Source: an uncultured Eubacteriales bacterium
GTDB lineage: Bacteria > Acidobacteriota > Aminicenantia > Aminicenantales > Aminicenantaceae
Direction of reading: 5' to 3'
NCBI GenBank assembly: GCA_964550165.1
Contig: CAZJYC010000005.1
Coordinates: 1 to 61,972 of the forward strand
DNA: 61,972 nt
The notes under the pieces were generated by a model that was not told the DNA's origin, ran no database searches, and saw only the letters and a list, made by a program, of their open reading frames with translations. The number at the start of each line of letters is the position of its first letter. Positions within the stretch are counted from its first letter, which is position 1. The position numbers and the translations under genes are program-made. This document shows, piece after piece, positions 17,907 to 53,285 of this stretch.

Positions 17907-18013
17907 AAATTGACATCGATGGGCCCTTTTGCTAAGATAACTCACGCTAAAATCTTGAATAATCTTCCAGGATGCCCGCTCGGGCGATAAGATCTTCATC
18001 AAGCCGAAAGTCT

Positions 18014-18088
18014 CGGGGAGTAGCGCAGCCTGGTTAGCGCGCCTGCCTTGGGAGCAGGAGGTCATCGGTTCAAATCCGATCTCCCCGA
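18014..18088 (+). tRNA. tRNA-Pro (anticodon TGG)
   Basis: Cloverleaf read by eye: acceptor cggggag/ctccccg, D-arm gcgc-agcctggttagc-gcgc, anticodon arm cctgc-cttggga-gcagg, T-arm atcgg-ttcaaat-ccgat. Confidence 0.8.
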
Positions 18089-18156
18089 TTGAAATTTAGG
18101 TTGTGGAAGAAATCGTTTGGATATAGATGTCAATTGTGATAGAAAAATATTAAGTT

Positions 18157-18230
18157 GCGCCTGTAGCTCAGGTGGATAGAGCAGCTGCCTTCTAAGCAGC
18201 GGGTCGGGGGTTCGAGTCCCTCCAGGCGCG
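18157..18230 (+). tRNA. tRNA-Arg (anticodon TCT)
   Basis: Acceptor gcgcctg/caggcgc, D-arm tagctcaggtggatagagca, anticodon arm gctgc-cttctaa-gcagc, T-arm gggggttcgagtccctc. Confidence 0.8.
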
Positions 18231-18276
18231 CATTCCATTTCTGTTAAGACCCTTGTGAGAATAAGGTTTTTGGCTC

Positions 18277-30779: not shown

Positions 30780-33131
30780 CTATCCTTTCTTGGCCTCGCC
30801 GCTGACAATTTTTTTGATATCCTCGGCTGAGGCAACTCCGCTGTTAAACATATAGCATGTCGAGCTTTCAAGAAGCCTTTCGAAGAAATTCCTCTGCAAT
30901 TCCGCCCTTTCAGGGGTCTTCAGCAGAAGATGGGGATTATAAAAAGGCTGGCTCTTGGCCGGACTGAGGGTCTGTCTCATGCCTATGATTTCTCCGGATT
31001 CGAGAATGCGCAGTGCATCGTCTTTATCCATTTCCACAGAGGGCGGAGAAACAGTATCGGAGCGAAGAATGAATATCCAGCGCAGCGAAGTCCTTTTGAC
31101 ATGCTTGGCCGGCCCCTGGATCCAGTAAGGATCGAGAAGGGCATGGGCATCTTTAGATGCCTTGTAGCAGTAGGGTGAACCACGGTCAAGACGGCAGTCA
31201 TCAAGCCTGAGGCATTCGCTGTTCTGGCAGTCCTCCTTGCGGATGATGACATTCTCGCATTTGCTGTTGTCAAAAAGCGCTGCCAGACGGGCAAAGGATT
31301 CGACAGTGTTGGTCGGCAGGAAGAGCTTCCGTTCAACAGAATCGGCCAGGGCCGCGCCTCCCGAAAAGCGGACAAAGACCGTGTCGTTGGAGTGCAGACG
31401 GAATCGGTCATCCTCGAGGAGGGCAAAGAAGAGCTCAGTTTTTTTGGTGCCCTTGGGGCCGATGAGAACGAGCCCGTTTCCGTCGATATCGGCAGACATA
31501 CCCCTGACAGCGTAGACATTAAACAATCTTTCTGAGACATCCATCACAAGCCCCAGGGCCATGCTCCGCAGTGGAGAATAGTTGTCGGCGTTGACAAGAA
31601 TGCCTGTGTTCGTTTCTGTGTTGTAGTACGCGTGCGGTTCGCGGCCGGCAATGCCGTCAACGGCGTAGATGATGCCGTGCGGCTCTAAATCCGCTTCCAG
31701 TTGAGCCGGGTACCAGTTTTCCATCCAGAAATCGTTCAGATGGGCAATATTGGTCCGCAACTGAACGACAACACCGTTGATGTTGGCATTCCATTCAAAA
31801 TAGTTTTCGTAGCTGAGATGACTTTCCATTTCGGCCACCAGGGCGTCTTTCATCTTGAGCGAGATGCTGGAGTCCATGGGAACGGACTTTTTCCAGCGGG
31901 TTAGGGTGTTGTTCAGGGCAATACGCCTGACCTTTTTGGCCGTCTTGAGGCGGGAAAGGGCATCGATAATCCGGTCCATACCCTTCTCCAGGTTTTCCAT
32001 GGACGTGGCATAGGAGATGCGGATGTAATCGTCAGCGCCGAAGGCATCACCGGGAACGATGGCCACTCGTGCCTCTCTCAGAAGGTAGTAAGCCATTCCG
32101 TAGGAGTTTCGAATCTGGATATTGTTGAATTCTTTATCATAGTAATAGGAACAATTGGGGAAAAGATAGAATGCGCCCTGGGGCTTGAAGCAGGAAACAT
32201 GGGAAATAGTCTGAAGTCTCATTAAGAGATAATTCCTCCGTCTCTGGAATTCAGCCGTCATCCTGGAGACATCATACTGGGGTCCGGACAAGGCTTCCAG
32301 GCTTGCTTTTTGCGAGATGGAGCAGGGATTGGAGGTGGTATGGCTCTGGACTTTGGCCATGGTGTCGATGATTTCTGCCGGACCGGCCGCAAAGCCTATG
32401 CGCCACCCGGTCATGGAGTAGGATTTTGAGACCCCGCTGATGAGGATAGTCCTTTTTTTGATTTCCTCTCCCAAGGAAGGAAAACTCACAAAACGGAAGT
32501 CGTCGTAGATGATTTTGCTGTAAATTTCATCGGCGATAACGAGGATGTCCTCGTCGGGAATGATGTCAGCCAGGGCTTCCAGCTCGTGTTTTTGGTAAGC
32601 GGCACCTGTGGGATTGGCGGGGTTGTTGAGGATTAAGGCCTTGGTTGCGGGAGAAATAGCATCCTTGAGCTGGTCTGGGGTCAGGAGAAAGCCGTTTTCC
32701 TCCTTGGTCGGGATGATGACAGCTTTGCCTTTGGCCAGCGCCACAGCCTGAGGGTAGGTGACCCAGTAGGGTGCAGGGACGATGACTTCATCGCCTTCGT
32801 TGACAACGGACTGAATGAGGTGGAAGAGGGAGCTTTTTGCGCCCGTGGAGACGATGATTTCGTTCCTGGCATATCTCAGGCTAAAATCTTCACTGAGCCT
32901 GGTGATGATGGCTTCCTTCAGGGCTGGGATTCCCTCGGTTTCTGTGTATTTGGTGAAATTCTGCTCGATGGCCCGGATGCCAGCAGTTTTGATGTGTTCG
33001 GGCGTGGGGAAATCCGGCTCTCCAACGCTGAGGTCGACGACATCGATTCCTTCCGCCTTCATCGCTTTGGCTTTGGTTGTAATTTTGAGTGTCGGAGATG
33101 TGCCGATTTGATTAGCCTTTTCTGATATCAT
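30780..33131 (-). CDS. Fusion protein: class-I aspartate/aromatic aminotransferase (N-terminal, about 400 aa) plus a PEPCK/HprK-like P-loop domain (C-terminal, about 380 aa)
   Basis: N-terminus DLSVGEPDFPTPEHIK...SKSYSMTGWRIGFAAGP, with the PLP-Lys context. C-terminus ...GNGLVLIGPKGTKKTELFFALLEDDRFRLHSNDTVFV, whose layout parallels the kinase core of the neighbouring PEPCK-like protein (GVFLFGLSATGKSTWS...TQDDIVFL). Confidence 0.55.
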   Translation of the reverse strand: MISEKANQIGTSPTLKITTKAKAMKAEGIDVVDLSVGEPDFPTPEHIKTAGIRAIEQNFTKYTETEGIPALKEAIITRLSEDFSLRYARNEIIVSTGAKSSLFHLIQSVVNEGDEVIVPAPYWVTYPQAVALAKGKAVIIPTKEENGFLLTPDQLKDAISPATKALILNNPANPTGAAYQKHELEALADIIPDEDILVIADEIYSKIIYDDFRFVSFPSLGEEIKKRTILISGVSKSYSMTGWRIGFAAGPAEIIDTMAKVQSHTTSNPCSISQKASLEALSGPQYDVSRMTAEFQRRRNYLLMRLQTISHVSCFKPQGAFYLFPNCSYYYDKEFNNIQIRNSYGMAYYLLREARVAIVPGDAFGADDYIRISYATSMENLEKGMDRIIDALSRLKTAKKVRRIALNNTLTRWKKSVPMDSSISLKMKDALVAEMESHLSYENYFEWNANINGVVVQLRTNIAHLNDFWMENWYPAQLEADLEPHGIIYAVDGIAGREPHAYYNTETNTGILVNADNYSPLRSMALGLVMDVSERLFNVYAVRGMSADIDGNGLVLIGPKGTKKTELFFALLEDDRFRLHSNDTVFVRFSGGAALADSVERKLFLPTNTVESFARLAALFDNSKCENVIIRKEDCQNSECLRLDDCRLDRGSPYCYKASKDAHALLDPYWIQGPAKHVKRTSLRWIFILRSDTVSPPSVEMDKDDALRILESGEIIGMRQTLSPAKSQPFYNPHLLLKTPERAELQRNFFERLLESSTCYMFNSGVASAEDIKKIVSGEAKKG

Positions 33132-45969: not shown

Positions 45970-47265
45970 TTACTGGTATTCATATTCAGCAGTGCTCTGC
46001 CGCTCCAGACAATCCAGGAGGAGGTGGCACATGATTTTGATTCCCAAAGGGATGCTTTGTTCGTCAGAATTGAAATAAGGGCTATGGAGAGGGGCCATGG
46101 TTTCCTCTGCGGGATTTTTCACGCCCAGGAAAAAATAGAAGCCAGGAATCTTCTGGCAGAAATAGGAAAAGTCTTCGGCAATCATTTGGGGACGCAGTCC
46201 TTTCACTTTCTCTGCCCCAAGGACATCGACGAGAGTCGGCCGCATGATCGCAGCCAATTCCGGGTGGTTGTAGACCGAAGGACAGCCTTCTCTGTAAATC
46301 AAGGTGTATTCTGCTCCGAAAGACTGGGTAATTCCTTTCACGATATTTTCTATCGCTTTAGGGATTTTCTTTCTGTTTTCATCGCTCAGGGTTCTGACAG
46401 TGCCCTCAAGATAGACCTCTTCGGCGATGATGTTTGACGTTGTGCCGCCTTCAATCTTCCCAATGGTCAGCACTGCAGGGTCGGTGGGGTCGATTGTCCG
46501 GCTGACAACGGCCTGGAGGCTTTGAATGACCTCCGCGGCAACGACGATGGCATCGATCCCTTCATAGGGACGAGCGCCGTGGGAGCTTTTTCCTGTGATG
46601 GTCATTCGGAACCAGTCAGAGTTTGCGGTTATGGGACCCGGAGAGAAGAAAACTTCACCTACATTTTCAGGCCAGACATGGAGTCCAAAGATCGCACCGA
46701 CAGAGGGATTTTCCAGAACTTTCTCCTTGATCATCAGCTTTGCTCCCTCTTCCTCCTGGGCTGAACCTTCTTCAGCGGGTTGAAAAATAAATTTGATGTT
46801 GCCCTTGATTTTGTCTTTTAAGGCAGAGAGGACCATAGCGGTTCCCAAAGCTATGGACATATGAATGTCGTGTCCGCAGGCATGCATCACTCCCGCGTTT
46901 AAAGACTTAAAGGGGACATCCGCCATTTCTTGAATGGGCAAGGCGTCCATGTCAGCCCTGTAGCCGACGGTCAGCCCCTGTTTTTCACCTCGAAGCAGGC
47001 CGACAACGCCAGTCTTGGCCACATTGGTTTTCACCTCAAGGCCCGATGACATGAGCTTGGACGCCACCAGCTTCGCTGTTTGATACTCCTGATTACCCAG
47101 TTCCGGGTTCATGTGGAGGAAGCGACGGATTTTTATGATCTCACTTATGTGTTTCTGGATTTTTTCTTCGATGAGAAGCGATGTGGTTTTGTCCACGGGG
47201 AATGCTCGAAGGGAAAAAAAAGCCAGAGAGAAAAAGACTATTTTCAGCTTGAAGCTGACTTTCAT
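45970..47265 (-). CDS. M20D-family amidohydrolase/peptidase (hippuricase-like), secreted
   Basis: Signal peptide. M20 metal-binding region GHDIHMSIALGTAMVLSAL...IKFIFQPAEEG. Confidence 0.75.
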   Translation of the reverse strand: MKVSFKLKIVFFSLAFFSLRAFPVDKTTSLLIEEKIQKHISEIIKIRRFLHMNPELGNQEYQTAKLVASKLMSSGLEVKTNVAKTGVVGLLRGEKQGLTVGYRADMDALPIQEMADVPFKSLNAGVMHACGHDIHMSIALGTAMVLSALKDKIKGNIKFIFQPAEEGSAQEEEGAKLMIKEKVLENPSVGAIFGLHVWPENVGEVFFSPGPITANSDWFRMTITGKSSHGARPYEGIDAIVVAAEVIQSLQAVVSRTIDPTDPAVLTIGKIEGGTTSNIIAEEVYLEGTVRTLSDENRKKIPKAIENIVKGITQSFGAEYTLIYREGCPSVYNHPELAAIMRPTLVDVLGAEKVKGLRPQMIAEDFSYFCQKIPGFYFFLGVKNPAEETMAPLHSPYFNSDEQSIPLGIKIMCHLLLDCLERQSTAEYEYQ

Positions 47266-47713: not shown

Positions 47714-50700
47714 ATGAAAAGAGTTATTTTCGGCTTAATATTTATTTTGTTTTTTTCTTCACTTATGAATCTCAATGCTCAATGGGCGAGAACTTATGGG
47801 GGAATTTTTGATGATTGTGTGCGTTCAATCCAGCAGACGACTGATGGAGGATATGTTGTCGCGGGCTACACTCGCTCTTTCGGTGCCGGGAGCAATGATT
47901 TTTGGGTTTTAAAACTTTCCCCGAATGGCTCGATAGAGTGGCAGCGGCTCTATGGAGGAAGCCATGCAGATTATGCTCGTTCTGTAGAACAGACAAGCGA
48001 TGGAGGATACGTCATTGCAGGAGATACCTGGTCGTATGGTGCTGGAGGAGGTGATCTTTGGATTTTAAAGCTTGATTCAGATGGTTTGATAGAATGGCAA
48101 AGGACCTATGGAGGGCAAGAAAGCTACGAGACCGCTTATTCTCTCCAGATAATAACAGATGGAGTTTATGTGGTTGCAGGTTACACACGCCCAACTTATC
48201 AAGACGACTATGATTTTTTTATCTTAAAGGTTTATTCAGAAGGAGAGATTGACTCCTCATGTGGATTCATTGGAAGCTCGGATGCATTTATTGTTTACAC
48301 CTATGTCTCCCCACAATCTGTTAGCTTATCGCCTCAAGATACAAGTATTACTCCCAACGACACAAGTTGCTCTACTCAAGAAACTAATGTCATAAGCGTT
48401 CTGCTCTGCGGGTCTTCAAAATATGTTCTTACAATATCCATGACTACAGGAGGTTCAACAGCTCCTGAGCCTGAAAGTTACCCTTTTGACTATGGTCAAA
48501 TAGTCTCAGTGGAAGCCATGGCTGATCCCGGATACCTGTTCAGCGGATGGTCAGGAGATATTCCGCCTGGTCATGAAAACAATAATCCTCTTTCAGTTAC
48601 AGTTGACAGAGACAAGGCGATAAAAGCCAATTTTTCGGTTGTTCTCGGTAATTATGAGCTCATAATCAGCGCATCCTCGGGAGGGACGACAAATCCCATG
48701 CCAGGAGCCTATTCCCATTCCAGTGGGACACAGGTCTGCATAACTGCTCTCCCAAGTCCAGGCGGCTCTTTTTTGAACTGGTCTGGTGATGTACCCTCGG
48801 GTCATGAGAATGACAATTCATTATGCATTACTCTGGATTCGGATAAATCTGTAATTGCACATTTTAGCACAGTTCAAAAGTGGACCTTTATGGTCTATCT
48901 TGATGCGGACAATGATATTGAGCAGGCTGCTATAGATGACTTGCTGGAGATTGCTGAGGTAGGCTCCAGTACTGATGTCAATCTTGTCGTTCAGTTCGAC
49001 CGAATCAGCGGCTATGATAACAGATATAAAAATTGGACATCGACCAAACGATTTTATGTTACCCATGCCATGGAACCCACGCCTGAAAATGCGGTTGAAG
49101 ATTTAGGTGAACTGAACCAAGGCGACCCTCAAACTTTAATAGATTTCATCAATTGGGCTAAAGCGAATTATCCTGCGACAAATTATGCTCTTGTTCTCTG
49201 GAATCATGGTGGCGGCTGGAGGGCGCCAAAAGAGAAGACGGCGAAAGAAGGAATGAGAAGACAGAGCGAGATAAGTATTAAAGCTGTATGTTGGGATTAC
49301 ACTGATGAAGGGGATGCATTGTATTTGGATGAACTTCAGGGCGCTTTGAATGCAAGTGGAAATGTCCATTTAATTGGATTTGATGCAGCCTTGATGGGGA
49401 TGGTCGAGGTGGCTTATGAGCTCAGGGACAACGGTGAAGTCATGGTTGGCTCCGAAGAATCCGTGTCCGCCGAAGGCTGGGCTTATGATGAGATTCTTCC
49501 CAGCTTATTAAGCAATCCCAACGGGACAGCTGTTCAATTCGGCACCGATATTATCGATCAGTGCTATACGTTATATACCAAGTCCGCAGTTGATTTGAAA
49601 AACATGAACGCTTTAGCCACTGCCATGAGTTCTTTTGCGCAGGCAATGATTGAATACTGGGATTCAGATAAAAATTCTGTTAAGAATGCAGCTGATGCTG
49701 TGATTGCGGAGATAGGGAAGACCGTTATCCGAGAAGATCACAATCCAGATTGGCCTCATGCCCATGGATTGGCTATTTATTTTCCGGAATTTTCGGATGA
49801 GTTTGATTCAGATTATAACGGAACTATAATCGATTTTCCCAATGATACTCAATGGGAGGAATTTTTACAGGAATTCTACGCATCGATGAAGGGTTCCTGG
49901 ATTGCGCAGTGCAGAGCTGGCTCTCAAGAGTTTTATTACCCGCAGCACATGGATCTCTATCATTTCTGTGCATTGATAAGTATTAAAATCCAGGAAATAG
50001 ATTATTATACCGAACATAAAATCTCACATCAGTTCATTGGTGGCGGAACAGAACAGCAATTCTATGAGGATGACGATAGCATGTCCTTTGCTCTTCCTTT
50101 TGATTTTCCTTACTTTGGAGAAACCATTCCTGCCGGAACAGAAATCTACATCTGCTCCAATGGCTTCGTCGATCTTGGGCATTTTTCATCTGATTACCTT
50201 AACCTTGGCTATGAGCTAATAAGAAATAAAAGGATTGCGCCTCTCTGGCTGGATTTAGTCATCAGTTTTTGGACAGAAGGTCATGATATCTACATCACAA
50301 GTAATCCCGATAATCTTGTTATCCGCTGGGCCGCAAAGACATGCTCAGCGGGGGGACCTGTTAATTTTGAGCTCATTCTCTATGCTGATGGGCGAATTCA
50401 GTTTAACTATGACGACGGAAATGATTTCAGCAATACGATATTAAGGCCAACAATCGGCATTTCTAAAGGAGACAGAATCAATTATTATTTCTCAGCTTAT
50501 AATTGCCAAAAGTATCTGACGAACGTTGATTCCATTGTTTTTTTGCCTGCGGGCGTAACATACTATGAGGTTACAATAGCTGCATCTGCTGGAGGTAGCA
50601 CTAATCCTTCGCCAGGAACACACATTTTTGTCGAGGGAAATGATATCACAATCCAAGCCATACCCGAATTTGGCTATAGATTCGACAACTGGACAGGAGA

Positions 50701-51298
50701 TATTCCCCCAGGCCACGAGAATGATAATCCGCTCGCGATTCATGTCGATTCCAACAAGTCAATAACAGCCAACTTTTTCCAACAGAACAAATTGACCTTA
50801 GTTGCAAAGAGCGGTGGCACAACTGATCCATCGCCTGGAAATTATTCATACGACCCTGGAACGCAAGTGATAATAAAAGCCATAGCAAACAGTGGTTATC
50901 AATTTAGCGGATGGAGCGGTGATGCAAGCGGAACAACTAACCCGATAACAATAACCATGGATTCAGACAAATCCATAACAGCCAACTTCAAAGCGACGGA
51001 CGGCGGCGATGATGGCGGAGGTAAGGGAGGCGGTTGCTTCATCGCCACAGCCGCTTATGGCTCTGCGCTTCATCCGCATGTGAATGTTCTTCGCGAGTTC
51101 AGGGATCGTTATCTTATGACCAACGCCTTGGGCCGCAAGCTGGTTAACATTTATTATAAATATTCTCCATTTCTGGCTGACGTCGTTTCCAGACACAAGA
51201 CATTGAAGGCTGCAATTCGGATTAGCCTTTTGCCTCTCGTTATTTTCAGTTACACGACGGTTCGTTTTGGGCCGATAATCCTCGCTATGCTTGTCTGA
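47714..51298 (+). CDS. Giant modular surface protein: SBBP-type beta-propeller repeats, InlB-type B-repeat domains, a clostripain/C11-like core (apparently Cys-less), an unknown domain, two more B-repeats, and a CFxxTAAYGS C-terminal anchor-like tail
   Basis: Signal peptide. Three ~45-aa repeats ...[28 protein letters not shown]...IEWQRLYGG. Repeated GGST.P.PG.Y.Y..G..V...A.P..GY.F.GWSGD units. [14 protein letters not shown] and [10 protein letters not shown] (C11 hallmarks), but IGFDAALMG where C11 has FDAC. C-terminal [30 protein letters not shown] followed by a hydrophobic tail. Confidence 0.7.
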
Positions 51299-51677
51299 TA
51301 GGTCATTTGTATTGGCAGTGCAGCAGATCCGCGGATATTTGCCACAATTTCCAAGCGCTGAGTTCCGAAAAAGGCAATCCCTCCAAGACTGACATGTCAA
51401 TATGAGCGAAAGAGAAGTCGTCTTCCCGAAAACTTCAAAAACATCCCCATCCGGATAGAATTCCACAGCTGATTGGGCTAAAAACTCACTACTGCTCTCT
51501 CAGAATAACCTCTTCGCTGATCTGTAGCTATAAGAGCCCCTGCTTGAGAATCTGTGGTGGAGGAGGTCTAAGCTTGAAGGTCAAGAAACCTGGGAATGCA
51601 TTTTTTTTCGTGGTTGAAAATTATGTTATGGATTTTGTGATGTTTCCGAAACCGGGCTTTACTGATGGGCGCGAGGA

Positions 51678-53285
51678 TCAGATGATGACATTCTCCTGGA
51701 ATGTGCCGAAAGCTTCCTTGAGGACTGAAGAGATTTCTCCTAACGTCGCCTTGGCCTTTACGGCAACGATGATGCCGGGCATGAGGTTTTTTCCGGATGC
51801 GATGGCCTCTTTTATGTCTAGGAGGGCAGCTTTAGGTTCAGCCTCTGACCTCTTTTTTTTGAGGCGTTGAAGTTTTCGGATTTGATCTCTTTCAACTTTT
51901 TTAGGCGGGGCATATGTTTTGAAGCGGATTTTCTCCTCTGGATTTTTGTATTCGTTAAGACCGACGAGGATCTGTTCCTTGCTCTCAACCTGGGTCTGAT
52001 ATTTATAGGCGCTCTCTTGAATTTCCTTCTGGATGAATCCCTTTTCGATTGCGGCCAGCATTCCTCCCATGTCCTCTATTTTTTTAAGGTACTCCATGAC
52101 TTTTCCTTCAATCTTATCGGTCAAGCTCTCCACATAGTAGGAGCCGCCCACAGGGTCGGCGGTGTCAGCCACTCCGCTTTCATGGGCAATGATCTGCTGG
52201 GTACGGAGCGCGATCTGGACAGACTCTTCGCTCGGCAGGGCCAGAGCTTCATCCCTGGAGTTGGTGTGCAGGGATTGGGTTCCTCCCAGGACGGCTGACA
52301 GGGCCTGGAGTGCGACCCGGACGACATTATTCTCTGGCTGTTGGGCAAGCAGGGTCACCCCGCTTGTCTGGGTGTGGAACCTGAATTTCCAGGAAAGGGG
52401 ATTTTTCGCCTGAAACCGTTCTCTCATCAATCTGGCCCATATTCTCCTCGCCGCGCGAAACTTGGCCACTTCCTCGAAGAAATTGTTGTGCGCTGCCAGA
52501 AAGAAAGATAGACGCGGCGCAAAGCCGTCCACTTTTAAGCCGGCCTGGATCGCAGCCTCAACATAGGTTAGAGCGTTGGCAAGGGTGAAGGCCAGTTCCT
52601 GAACAGCGGTGGCGCCCGCTTCCCGGATATGATAGCCGCTGATGCTCATCGTGTTCCAGTTGGGGACATTCTGCTGGCAGAAGGCGATGATGTCGGTGAT
52701 GATTTTGAGGGAGGCTTGGGGCGGATAGATGTAAGTGCCCCGGGCGATGTACTCTTTGAGAATGTCATTCTGGATCGTTCCCGAAAGCCTGTCCCAGCTT
52801 ATCCCTCTTTTTTCGGCCAGGGCGAGATACATCCCGAGGATAATGGCGGCCGTGGCATTGATGGTCATCGAAACACTGACTTTATCTAAGGGAATCTGGT
52901 CAAAGAGGGTTTCCATATCCTCGATGGAGTCGATGGCCACTCCAACCTTTCCCACTTCTCCGCGGGCTTGAGGATGGTCGGAATCCAGGCCTATCTGCGT
53001 GGGAAGGTCGAAGGCCACACTGAGCCCTGTTTGGCCCTGCAAAAGCAGAAAGCGGTACCTTTTGTTGGATTCCTCAGCCGTTGCGAACCCGGCATACTGG
53101 CGCATCGTCCACAGCCTGCCGCGGTACATGCTGGGATAGACGCCGCGCGTGAAGGGGTAGGTCCCGGGTTCGCCCAGATCGCGAGCGGGGTCGAAAGAGG
53201 CTAAATCCTCCTCGCTGTAGGTTTTTTTGATTTCAATCTGGGAGGATGTGAAAAAACTGTTTTTTCTTTCTTTTTCAGAGGCCAT
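51678..53285 (-). CDS. Methylmalonyl-CoA (acyl-CoA) mutase, catalytic N-terminal domain subunit
   Basis: [56 protein letters not shown]. 535 aa, ending before any B12-binding domain. Confidence 0.85.

Follow-up and report, generated by a model that had tools for sequence, protein, structure and literature searches.

A gene on the plus strand at 47714..51298 of the window, by which we mean the whole 61,972-nt stretch of DNA analysed here, encodes a multi-domain protein with a clostripain-like (C11) peptidase domain in which alanine stands where the nucleophilic cysteine is expected. Does this domain still cleave peptide bonds, is the gene decaying, or has a protease fold been kept for a role other than catalysis? 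The ORF call agrees with the original prediction of a 1194-aa product: the gene is complete, with 1194 codons plus stop, and runs uninterrupted across 3582 nt, without internal stop or frameshift. It is monocistronic, with minus-strand genes on either side that encode an M20 peptidase (45970-47265) and a methylmalonyl-CoA mutase (51678-53285). The start at M1 is supported because the predicted signal peptide is homologous to the N-termini of the relatives P0143, P0251 and P0248-P0250. A promoter and terminator scan gave counts no higher than in shuffled sequence, and an Rfam search of the window returned two tRNAs only, both distant from the gene. No second C11 gene, CFI-box gene or B-repeat gene was found elsewhere in the window. 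MutL assigns the DNA to Candidatus Aminicenantes, here an uncultured bacterium of sediment type; enolase compared with GTDB representatives was uninformative, its best matches, at 66%, being spread over many phyla.

The C11 domain together with its C-terminal subdomain spans aa 389-755 (48878..49978, plus strand), as delimited by profile, phmmer and AlphaFold/Foldseek analyses. Pfam Peptidase_C11 (PF03415) scores 157.3 bits on aa 394-655 (E=1e-45; gathering score 25.8), which is inside the range of 149-193 bits of the relatives. An AlphaFold model of aa 383-960 reached a pLDDT of 87.5 and a pTM of 0.82, and the top 11 Foldseek matches in the PDB were all C11 structures, the best being clostripain 9cip (E=3e-21). 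Thus, the model has the fold expected of a C11 homolog, and profile search and structure prediction both uphold the proposed C11-like domain. The clostripain equivalog TIGR02806 scores 94.5 bits, below its cut-off of 550.

Alignments place Ala559 (GCC, 49388..49390, plus strand) at the nucleophile position, equivalent to Cys179 of PmC11 and Cys231 of clostripain, as had been predicted. In the phmmer alignment to the PDB, NHGGG is paired with clostripain His176 and FDAALMG with FDAC(231)LMG, PmC11 chain B has FDAC(179)YM opposite FDAALM, and among the 120 closest homologs the position is Cys in 119 and Ser in one. A shifted register or alternative nucleophile is ruled out, as the alignments to clostripain, to PmC11 and to the 120 homologs are independent of each other and agree. 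The GCA GCC codons at 49385-49390, IGFDAALMG and the two further motifs named at the outset (24 residues together) are all found in the sequence. The catalytic-His block was also correctly recognised, as His498 (CAT) is kept and aligns with clostripain His176, a residue present in 118/118 aligned homologs, but its codon lies at 49205..49207 (plus strand) and not at 49204-49206. Asp557 (GAT, 49382..49384, plus strand), the S1 specificity residue that corresponds to PmC11 Asp177 and clostripain Asp229 (PMC4850288, PMC11296011), is invariant in 120/120 homologs, and the acidic S1 pocket residues Asn400, Asp557 and Glu587 are all retained. Of the residues that mark an active C11 peptidase, the protein therefore has the His and the S1 Asp and lacks the Cys.

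Two further elements of the active site can be recognised. The activation (autoinhibitory) linker, R503-K523 (49220..49282, plus strand), was located from alignments and model with reference to PmC11 (PMC4850288); R503 aligns with clostripain Arg181 and K523 with clostripain Arg190, the residue with which PmC11 Lys147 has been equated (PMC4850288), and the linker is the sole disordered internal stretch of the AlphaFold model. In the substrate-binding loop SVSAEGWA (aa 583-590; 49460..49483, plus strand), aligned with PmC11 Thr204-Pro210, six of eight residues depart from the family consensus TEPGDGWP, P585S and P590A among them.

Outside the core, the protein follows the domain order of its family, that is, signal peptide, propeller-type repeats, two B-repeats, C11, a NIDO-like domain, two B-repeats and a CFI-box tail (all on the plus strand). 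Sequence inspection and alignment to relatives identify a Sec-type signal peptide of 22 residues that ends before QW (47714..47779). It is followed by three DUF5122/delta-60-type beta-propeller repeats of ~52 aa each (47780..48253), which match the DUF5122 profile at 38 bits against a cut-off of 27 and stay under the cut-off of the delta-60 profile (50 versus 76.5); a motif count gives 2-3 repeat cores here and 4-7 in the collinear relatives. These repeats had been taken for SBBP beta-propellers, an assignment that is replaced by DUF5122: the protein has no Pfam SBBP match at E<=0.1, and the NCBIfam SBBP/LipL53 model (Lepto_SBBP_lipo) reaches 20 bits on the N-terminal repeats against a cut-off of 400. 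Instead of the five InlB-type B-repeats proposed, profile searches find four copies of Flg_new_2 (PF18998, a divergent InlB B-repeat; 175.8 bits versus a threshold of 23.6), two on each side of the core, at 48422-48634 (aa 237-307), 48653-48865 (aa 314-384), 50564-50776 (aa 951-1021) and 50789-50989 (aa 1026-1092). The NIDO-like all-beta domain (aa 763-945, 50000..50548; NIDO is PF06119) comes after C11, an order seen also in the collinear relatives and several homologs of shorter length.

A Gly/Asp-rich spacer of 15 residues (50990..51034) leads into the CFI-box-CTERM domain (NF041770; aa 1108-1176, 51035..51241), which begins with Cys1108 in a ten-residue motif and covers model positions 1-69 of 69 at 102.6 bits against a cut-off of 40, so that the NCBIfam search bears out the CFI-box-type C-terminal domain. 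With other CFI-box-CTERM proteins it shares this full-length match and the signature that extends from the ten-residue motif to LREFRDRYL, but the tail runs for 87 residues past the Cys, compared to ~110 in most relatives. No description of CFI-box-CTERM function was found in the searchable literature, where the term "CFI-box" had no matches.

The protein closes with a short hydrophobic end of 18 residues and the tandem stops TGA TAG (51296-51301; whole feature 51242..51301). Most relatives carry a full transmembrane helix and an Arg/Lys cluster after the CFI-box domain, a feature observed in the relatives that lies outside the NCBIfam model. The present protein stops nine residues into this helix, its last 11 residues being followed directly by TGA TAG, whereas the relatives run on for ~25 residues with the rest of the helix and the basic cluster; a search for a remnant of both in another frame 3′ of the stop gave nothing convincing. 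Surface anchoring is uncertain because the tandem stops cut off the C-terminal membrane helix, and the proposed display on the cell surface is thus doubtful for this copy. Judged from its domains, the product would be a Sec-exported multi-domain protein of the envelope or the extracellular space. Other relatives that are apparently complete have short CFI tails, too.

The collinear relatives (P0251, P0143, P0248-P0250, P0124 and P0254), which are uncharacterised metagenomic proteins, agree with it in signal peptide, repeat types, C11-NIDO-like core, B-repeats and CFI-box tail; identity is 51-59% across ~1140 aligned columns. By their catalytic residues, the members of this family fall into three states. 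P0248-P0250, P0124 and P0254 are His/Cys and, unlike our protein, have an intact catalytic pair; the gene studied here represents the His/Ala state; and P0251 and P0143 are Gly/Ala, with the same Cys-to-Ala change in the same GCA GCC codons but, unlike in our protein, with the His and the whole activation linker also lost. All collinear relatives have more propeller repeats, most have a complete membrane anchor, and relative to them our protein has a nine-residue deletion after position 617. For this His/Ala gene, no ortholog above ~58% identity is on record, and dS is saturated against every relative.

The Cys-to-Ala substitution is not unique, since two relatives carry it. Beyond these two, Ser, Gly and Asp repeatedly replace the nucleophile Cys in the wider C11 family, with Ser in six other domain instances, and ~4% of the sampled C11 domain instances are without Cys or His. 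For a common origin of the change in our protein and the Gly/Ala pair, neighbor-joining bootstrap was 54% on C11 plus NIDO and 50:50 on the full length, and polarised informative sites on this grouping split 11:5:4. A tree of C11 only placed P0143 among other dead sequences, possibly through long-branch attraction. Gene conversion of the active site from a co-resident Gly/Ala paralog was rejected, as no tract of nucleotide identity rose above the level of the intact relatives, and so was a mosaic or recombinant origin (single-breakpoint maximum chi-square, p=0.46, not significant). The same samples contain both dead and intact family members, which, to judge from tetranucleotide signatures, probably share genomes; no synteny was found among the loci of the relatives.

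Purifying selection that keeps a dead C11 domain was shown on the Gly/Ala pair. The C11-domain dN/dS of P0251 and P0143 is 0.175 (~0.18), which matches the 0.157 (0.16) of the intact pair P0250 and P0248, indicating that the dead domain is kept by selection in the family. With 86% amino-acid identity, it is the second-best conserved domain of this protein pair, and at 55 near-invariant C11 positions the Gly/Ala proteins deviate at only two or three, namely the two catalytic residues and, in P0251, M413I. The Gly/Ala domain is as strongly conserved as its intact counterparts, and it follows that selection maintains the C11 fold for a non-catalytic role in this family. The original prediction of a pseudo-protease stands in that the protein is a C11 homolog without nucleophile and neither a register artefact nor an assembly error; the adhesin or scaffold function proposed with it is putative. 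That it serves, like its Gly/Ala relatives, in a selected non-catalytic role, probably binding, is the explanation we favour, and we consider it on the whole rather probable.

The favoured explanation would work as follows. Fold, catalytic His and acidic S1 pocket are kept, and with Ala as nucleophile the domain should neither cleave peptide bonds by a thiol-based mechanism nor activate itself. This presumed loss of activity follows the analogy with PmC11 C179A, which is catalytically inactive and does not process itself (PMC4850288); by the same analogy, self-cleavage in the linker is not expected in the absence of the Cys, although R503 and K523 are present. The linker would thus stay uncut, and the pocket would probably be occluded unless an intact C11 enzyme cuts K523 or R503 in trans. 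The most likely role, judging from the retained S1 pocket, would be to bind peptides or proteins that contain Arg or Lys, and the B-repeats, the NIDO-like beta domain and the propeller-type repeats could provide further binding surface. The Candidatus Aminicenantes lineage has been described as a protein degrader, and a binding role fits this lifestyle. Substrate-loop drift (P585S, P590A) counts against this role, as binding might be impaired as well.

A wider reading, which we put forward only tentatively, is that one Aminicenantes family displays three successive stages of protease death, from the intact enzyme through loss of the nucleophile to the additional loss of His and autoinhibitory linker, with purifying selection on the end state. 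C11 domains would have become non-catalytic receptors for Arg/Lys peptides that capture detrital protein beside intact paralogs, with the His/Ala protein as a rare intermediate. If true, this protein would show the order of events in the loss of a protease.

Against a selected role, the gene may be a decaying paralog, a pseudogene in the making under relaxed selection since the loss of the nucleophile, with an idle C11 domain and at most the other domains useful. The protein deviates at nine of the 55 near-invariant C11 columns, a number reached by 0/117 homologs and exceeding that of nine independently fetched relatives (at most five); the propeller array is shortened, the membrane helix and basic tail are cut off, nine residues are deleted after residue 617, the GC content is below that of the flanks (0.44 versus 0.49 for the window), and the His/Ala gene has no ortholog on record. 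However, conservative exchanges between hydrophobic residues account for five of the nine deviations, and at columns conserved to at least 60% the protein deviates at 19%, an ordinary degree of divergence given a median of 16%. The reading frame is open, the Pfam score is that of a normal family member, the predicted fold is confident, and the short tail has its counterparts among apparently complete relatives. Moreover, purifying selection clearly acts on sister proteins that have kept even less of the catalytic machinery. We therefore regard decay as unlikely, while the fewer propeller repeats, the truncated anchor, the nine-residue deletion and the lower GC content were counted against the favoured explanation.

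Some pseudo-caspases regulate caspases, and by resemblance the dead domain, its basic linker uncut, might act as a competitive substrate, trap or partner of an active C11 enzyme in the same cell. Dead and intact members share communities and probably genomes, the known cleavage positions of the linker are still occupied by basic residues (R503 and K523), and cleavage of PmC11 C179A in trans is possible when the enzyme ratio is high (PMC4850288). PmC11 is monomeric, however, so that a caspase-style heterodimer is not expected (PMC4850288), and the Gly/Ala relatives have no linker and hence no decoy substrate at that site. Nor was an intact C11 found for this organism in the window or in contigs of the same sample series: four candidates were checked, and none came from SRR86527xx. 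Such a decoy or regulator is improbable in our view; the lack of an intact C11 in the window and these contigs was also counted against the favoured explanation of a binding pseudo-protease.

It is more improbable still that the domain remains an enzyme, rescued by a His-activated water or by another nucleophile, for which Cys617, specific to this lineage, and Cys526, which is conserved, would be examples. His498 and the S1 pocket are kept, a Cys was gained at the near-invariant Tyr617 position, and Ser takes the nucleophile position in the six domain instances mentioned above; but the side chain of Ala is not nucleophilic, PmC11 C179A lacks activity with every other residue in place (PMC4850288), conservation of Cys526 extends to the active enzymes and this residue is not known as catalytic, and in two relatives the His, too, is gone. 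An assembly or consensus error or a rare variant as the source of the Ala is hardly credible, since, even though all three assemblies with this gene belong to a single sample series (SRR86527xx), they stem from at least two sequencing runs and agree on the gene, that of SRR8652715 yielding the identical protein independently (100% nucleotide identity) and that of SRR8652713 the identical protein with 17 SNPs in 13.4 kb, 0 of them inside the gene, while a change from Cys (TGY) to GCC takes two adjacent nucleotide differences, as was argued from the start, the GCA GCC pair recurs in two relatives 54% identical at the protein level, and Ala559 comes together with eight more changes that are specific to the lineage and lie at invariant positions.

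Pseudo-proteases are already known as a phenomenon, but the literature searches retrieved no paper on a characterised C11 pseudo-protease; the SRR accessions of the sample series had no match in the literature either. Within one architecture, the family provides intact, half-dead and fully dead forms from nature, with which the behaviour of a clan CD fold after the loss of catalysis can be tested. In the fully dead proteins the linker is excised exactly, which raises the question of whether its loss opens a binding pocket. Sediment metagenome studies count PF03415 matches as clostripain potential (e.g., PMC6469976), and because ~4% of the sampled instances have no Cys or His, such counts overestimate proteolytic capacity. 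Annotation pipelines probably label C11 proteins without nucleophile as peptidases.

Among known systems, clostripain of Hathewaya histolytica (9cip; MEROPS C11) is the best match both in sequence (E=6.6e-24) and in fold. Both proteins have the alpha/beta/alpha sandwich, the His-Gly block, the FDA-x-LMG block and the S1 Asp (PMC11296011), as well as basic residues at both linker cleavage positions. In contrast, clostripain has Cys231 where our protein has Ala, identity is only ~20%, and our C11 domain sits inside a 1194-aa multi-domain protein. In PmC11 of Parabacteroides merdae (3uws/4yec), His133, Lys147, Asp177 (the S1 determinant; PMC4850288), Cys179 and Asp207 correspond to H498, K523, D557, A559 and E587, and Asn50 corresponds to N400 by the conserved D-x-D-N motif rather than by pairwise alignment. 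By this residue mapping, our protein is the natural equivalent of the engineered C179A variant (PMC4850288). It differs from PmC11 in that its linker is longer, its substrate loop carries additional changes and many domains are added. Caspase-like pseudoenzymes such as cFLIP are known pseudo-proteases. So are the CspA and CspC pseudoprotease domains of Clostridioides difficile, which are cited in PMC12445089. These proteins belong to protease families other than C11, CspA/CspC being subtilisin-like (S8) and cFLIP a caspase homolog (C14), and what they have in common with the C11 domain described here is a protease fold that was kept after the loss of catalytic residues, with non-catalytic reuse.

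The gene at 47714..51298 on the plus strand (1194 codons) encodes a protein in which Pfam detects a Peptidase_C11 domain at aa 394-655 (E=1e-45, 157 bits vs. a gathering score of 25.8), DUF5122 beta-propeller repeats where SBBP repeats had been predicted, four Flg_new_2 B-repeats instead of the five expected, and a NIDO match below threshold. NCBIfam adds the C-terminal CFI-box-CTERM domain (NF041770; aa 1108-1176, 102.6 bits vs. 40), which had been anticipated; its clostripain equivalog model falls far short of the cut-off (94 vs. 550). The gene has a GC content of 0.44 compared to 0.49 for the window and 0.47-0.54 for neighbouring genes. In a phmmer search against PDB sequences, A559 lies opposite Cys231 of clostripain (9cip), with FDAALMG on FDACLMG, and H498 within an NHGGG block lies opposite His176; the alignment to chain B of PmC11, the C11 peptidase of Parabacteroides merdae, pairs A559 with Cys179 and D557 with Asp177. 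Ala559 is encoded by GCC at 49388-49390 (+) and His498 by CAT at 49205-49207, which shifts the originally assigned 49204-49206 by a single base. AlphaFold predicts aa 383-960 with confidence (pLDDT 87.5, pTM 0.82); the model's top PDB matches are all C11 structures, led by clostripain (E=3e-21), and its sole disordered internal stretch is the activation linker at aa 502-520. The protein is a C11 homolog that has lost its nucleophile, and both alignments agree with the original prediction on this point.

An assembly error behind Ala559 is very unlikely, as had been argued from the sequence: GCC is two substitutions away from any Cys codon, and two runs, assembled independently in Logan, both encode the identical protein. 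The SRR8652715 assembly has 100% nucleotide identity to the window over 5.4 kb; across 13.4 kb, the SRR8652713 assembly differs by 17 SNPs, all outside the gene. Sixteen of the 17 (five non-synonymous) fall within ∼1.1 kb at 51800-52887, in the 3′ half of the minus-strand methylmalonyl-CoA mutase gene (51678..53285), leaving a single SNP in the other 12 kb; such clustering suggests a tract acquired by recombination or a segment that varies between strains. The other neighbours are likewise ordinary chromosomal genes (ComEC, M20 peptidase, enolase, MutL, PilB, S41 peptidase and others), and none of the neighbours has an obvious functional link to the C11 gene. All named MutL relatives, at 74% identity or less, belong to Candidatus Aminicenantes, which have been described as protein-degradation specialists (PMC6469976). 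Directly downstream of mutL lie tRNA-Pro(TGG) and tRNA-Arg(TCT) (18013-18231), and a 783-aa ORF on the minus strand (30783-33131) matches aspartate aminotransferase on aa 1-397 only, with no NCBIfam assignment for its C-terminal ∼380 residues.

Nucleophile loss is rare in C11 (about 4%) yet recurrent, because in 245 diverse proteins, with 262 domain instances between them, the column holds 251 Cys, six Ser, and one each of Ala, Gly and Asp, with two gaps. An exhaustive profile-free search placed 15,821 cluster representatives in the protein's family. Its 120 closest homologs, at 60% identity or less, carry Cys in 119 cases and Ser in one, and the catalytic His is present in every homolog covering that column. 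The six Ser instances are P0002 (L002 959-3088), P0125, P0135, P0184, P0161 and P0169, some with further losses (Asp to Gly/Ala, His to Gln), and P0140 combines His to Arg with Cys to Gly.

A full-length search and pairwise comparisons revealed collinear relatives, all with a homologous signal peptide (...LNAQWARTY), DUF5122-type repeats and two B-repeats, followed by the C11 domain, a NIDO-like domain, two further B-repeats, a Gly-rich spacer and the CFI-box tail. P0248, P0249, P0250 and the LVIVD-repeat versions P0124 and P0254 have an intact His/Cys pair; of these, only P0248 and P0250 were aligned across the activation linker, and both retain it. The Ala559 protein has His/Ala with the linker present. 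In P0251 (L084 77-4336) and P0143 (L087 2508-6737), Gly/Ala is accompanied by an exact deletion of the ∼21-residue linker (compare 49220-49282 of the window), and the GWR and C(W/L)D blocks that border it are kept. Codons 558-559 read GCA GCC in the Ala559 gene and both Gly/Ala genes, and GCC TGT, GCT TGC or GCC TGC in Cys-bearing relatives. The protein is probably a pseudoenzyme within C11 whose family shows three stages of catalytic loss; the original pseudo-protease reading gains support and is extended.

A C11 domain lacking both catalytic residues is under purifying selection as strong as that in intact enzymes, because Nei-Gojobori dN/dS, calculated domain by domain, is similar in the Gly/Ala pair P0251-P0143 (dN 0.075, dS 0.43, dN/dS 0.175, 86% amino acid identity) and the His/Cys pair P0250-P0248 (dN 0.102, dS 0.65, dN/dS 0.157, 82%), and because the Gly/Ala proteins deviate at only 2-3 of 55 near-invariant positions, namely the catalytic pair and, in P0251, also M413I. 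These values cover the two pairs only; dS of the Ala559 gene is saturated against every relative. In the dead pair, which is 73% identical overall, only one domain is better conserved than C11. This purifying selection is the main evidence that the C11 fold would have a non-catalytic function in the family.

The Ala559 protein itself keeps N400 (in a conserved D-x-D-N motif, taken as PmC11 Asn50), H498, D557 and E587 (opposite PmC11 Asp207), together with the basic linker, in which R503 and K523 occupy the cleavage-site positions of clostripain and PmC11 (PMC4850288, PMC11296011). It departs from nine of the 55 near-invariant columns (L402I, F410L, M413I, I424L, M469Q, C559A, P585S, V614I, Y617C), a number reached by none of 117 homologs and at most five in nine independently fetched relatives; at columns conserved to at least 60% its deviation is ordinary (19% vs. 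a median of 16%). The pattern is one of constraint relaxed selectively at the most conserved positions rather than of decay throughout. Six of eight positions in substrate loop 583-590 are off consensus. Having only about three propeller-type repeats (4-7 in relatives), a 9-residue deletion after residue 617, low GC and a truncated tail counts against full functionality. The ORF ends in tandem stops (51296-51301) nine residues into a TM helix that in most relatives is followed by an Arg/Lys cluster. Export is likely, because of the signal peptide, and membrane anchoring uncertain, because of the truncation. The long CFI-box form (P0251, P0248-50, P0124) extends about 110 aa from its Cys through TM helix and Arg/Lys cluster; short forms of 76-87 aa without the helix occur in P0143 and another subgroup (P0267, P0273, P0291), and the NCBIfam model spans the first 69 residues only.

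The Ala559 protein, the Gly/Ala pair and the His/Cys trio are mutually near-equidistant (57-59% identity). Gene conversion at the active site and mosaicism of the protein were both tested, with negative results. One ancestral Cys-to-Ala change shared with the Gly/Ala pair is weakly favoured: neighbour-joining bootstraps for grouping the Ala559 protein with that pair are 54% on C11+NIDO and 50% on full length, and polarised informative sites support this grouping by 11:5:4. The tetranucleotide correlation of the P0251 flank (L084) with the window is 0.956, equal to that of chunks within the window, and that of the P0143 (L087) and P0250 (L088) flanks is 0.95, compared to 0.77 for the best of 80 unrelated genomes. 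This suggests that the Ala559 protein and P0251 reside in one genome and P0143 and P0250 in another. Because of these signatures and of co-occurrence, with P0251 in the window's own sample series and P0143 and P0250 both in one JGI sample, individual organisms probably carry a dead copy together with an intact or a half-dead paralog. A host-specific CFI tail would fit, since tail identity is 75% between the Ala559 protein and P0251 and only 59% between the orthologs P0251 and P0143.

Through its retained acidic S1 pocket, the C11 domain of the Ala559 protein may bind basic residues. The pocket would probably be closed, because the autoinhibitory linker is not self-cleavable, unless an intact C11 enzyme cuts it in trans; in the Gly/Ala relatives, loss of the linker from the gene appears to have removed this obstacle. 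The engineered equivalent in a known C11 enzyme, PmC11 C179A, shows neither activity nor self-processing, and its cleavage in trans is possible when the enzyme ratio is high (PMC4850288).
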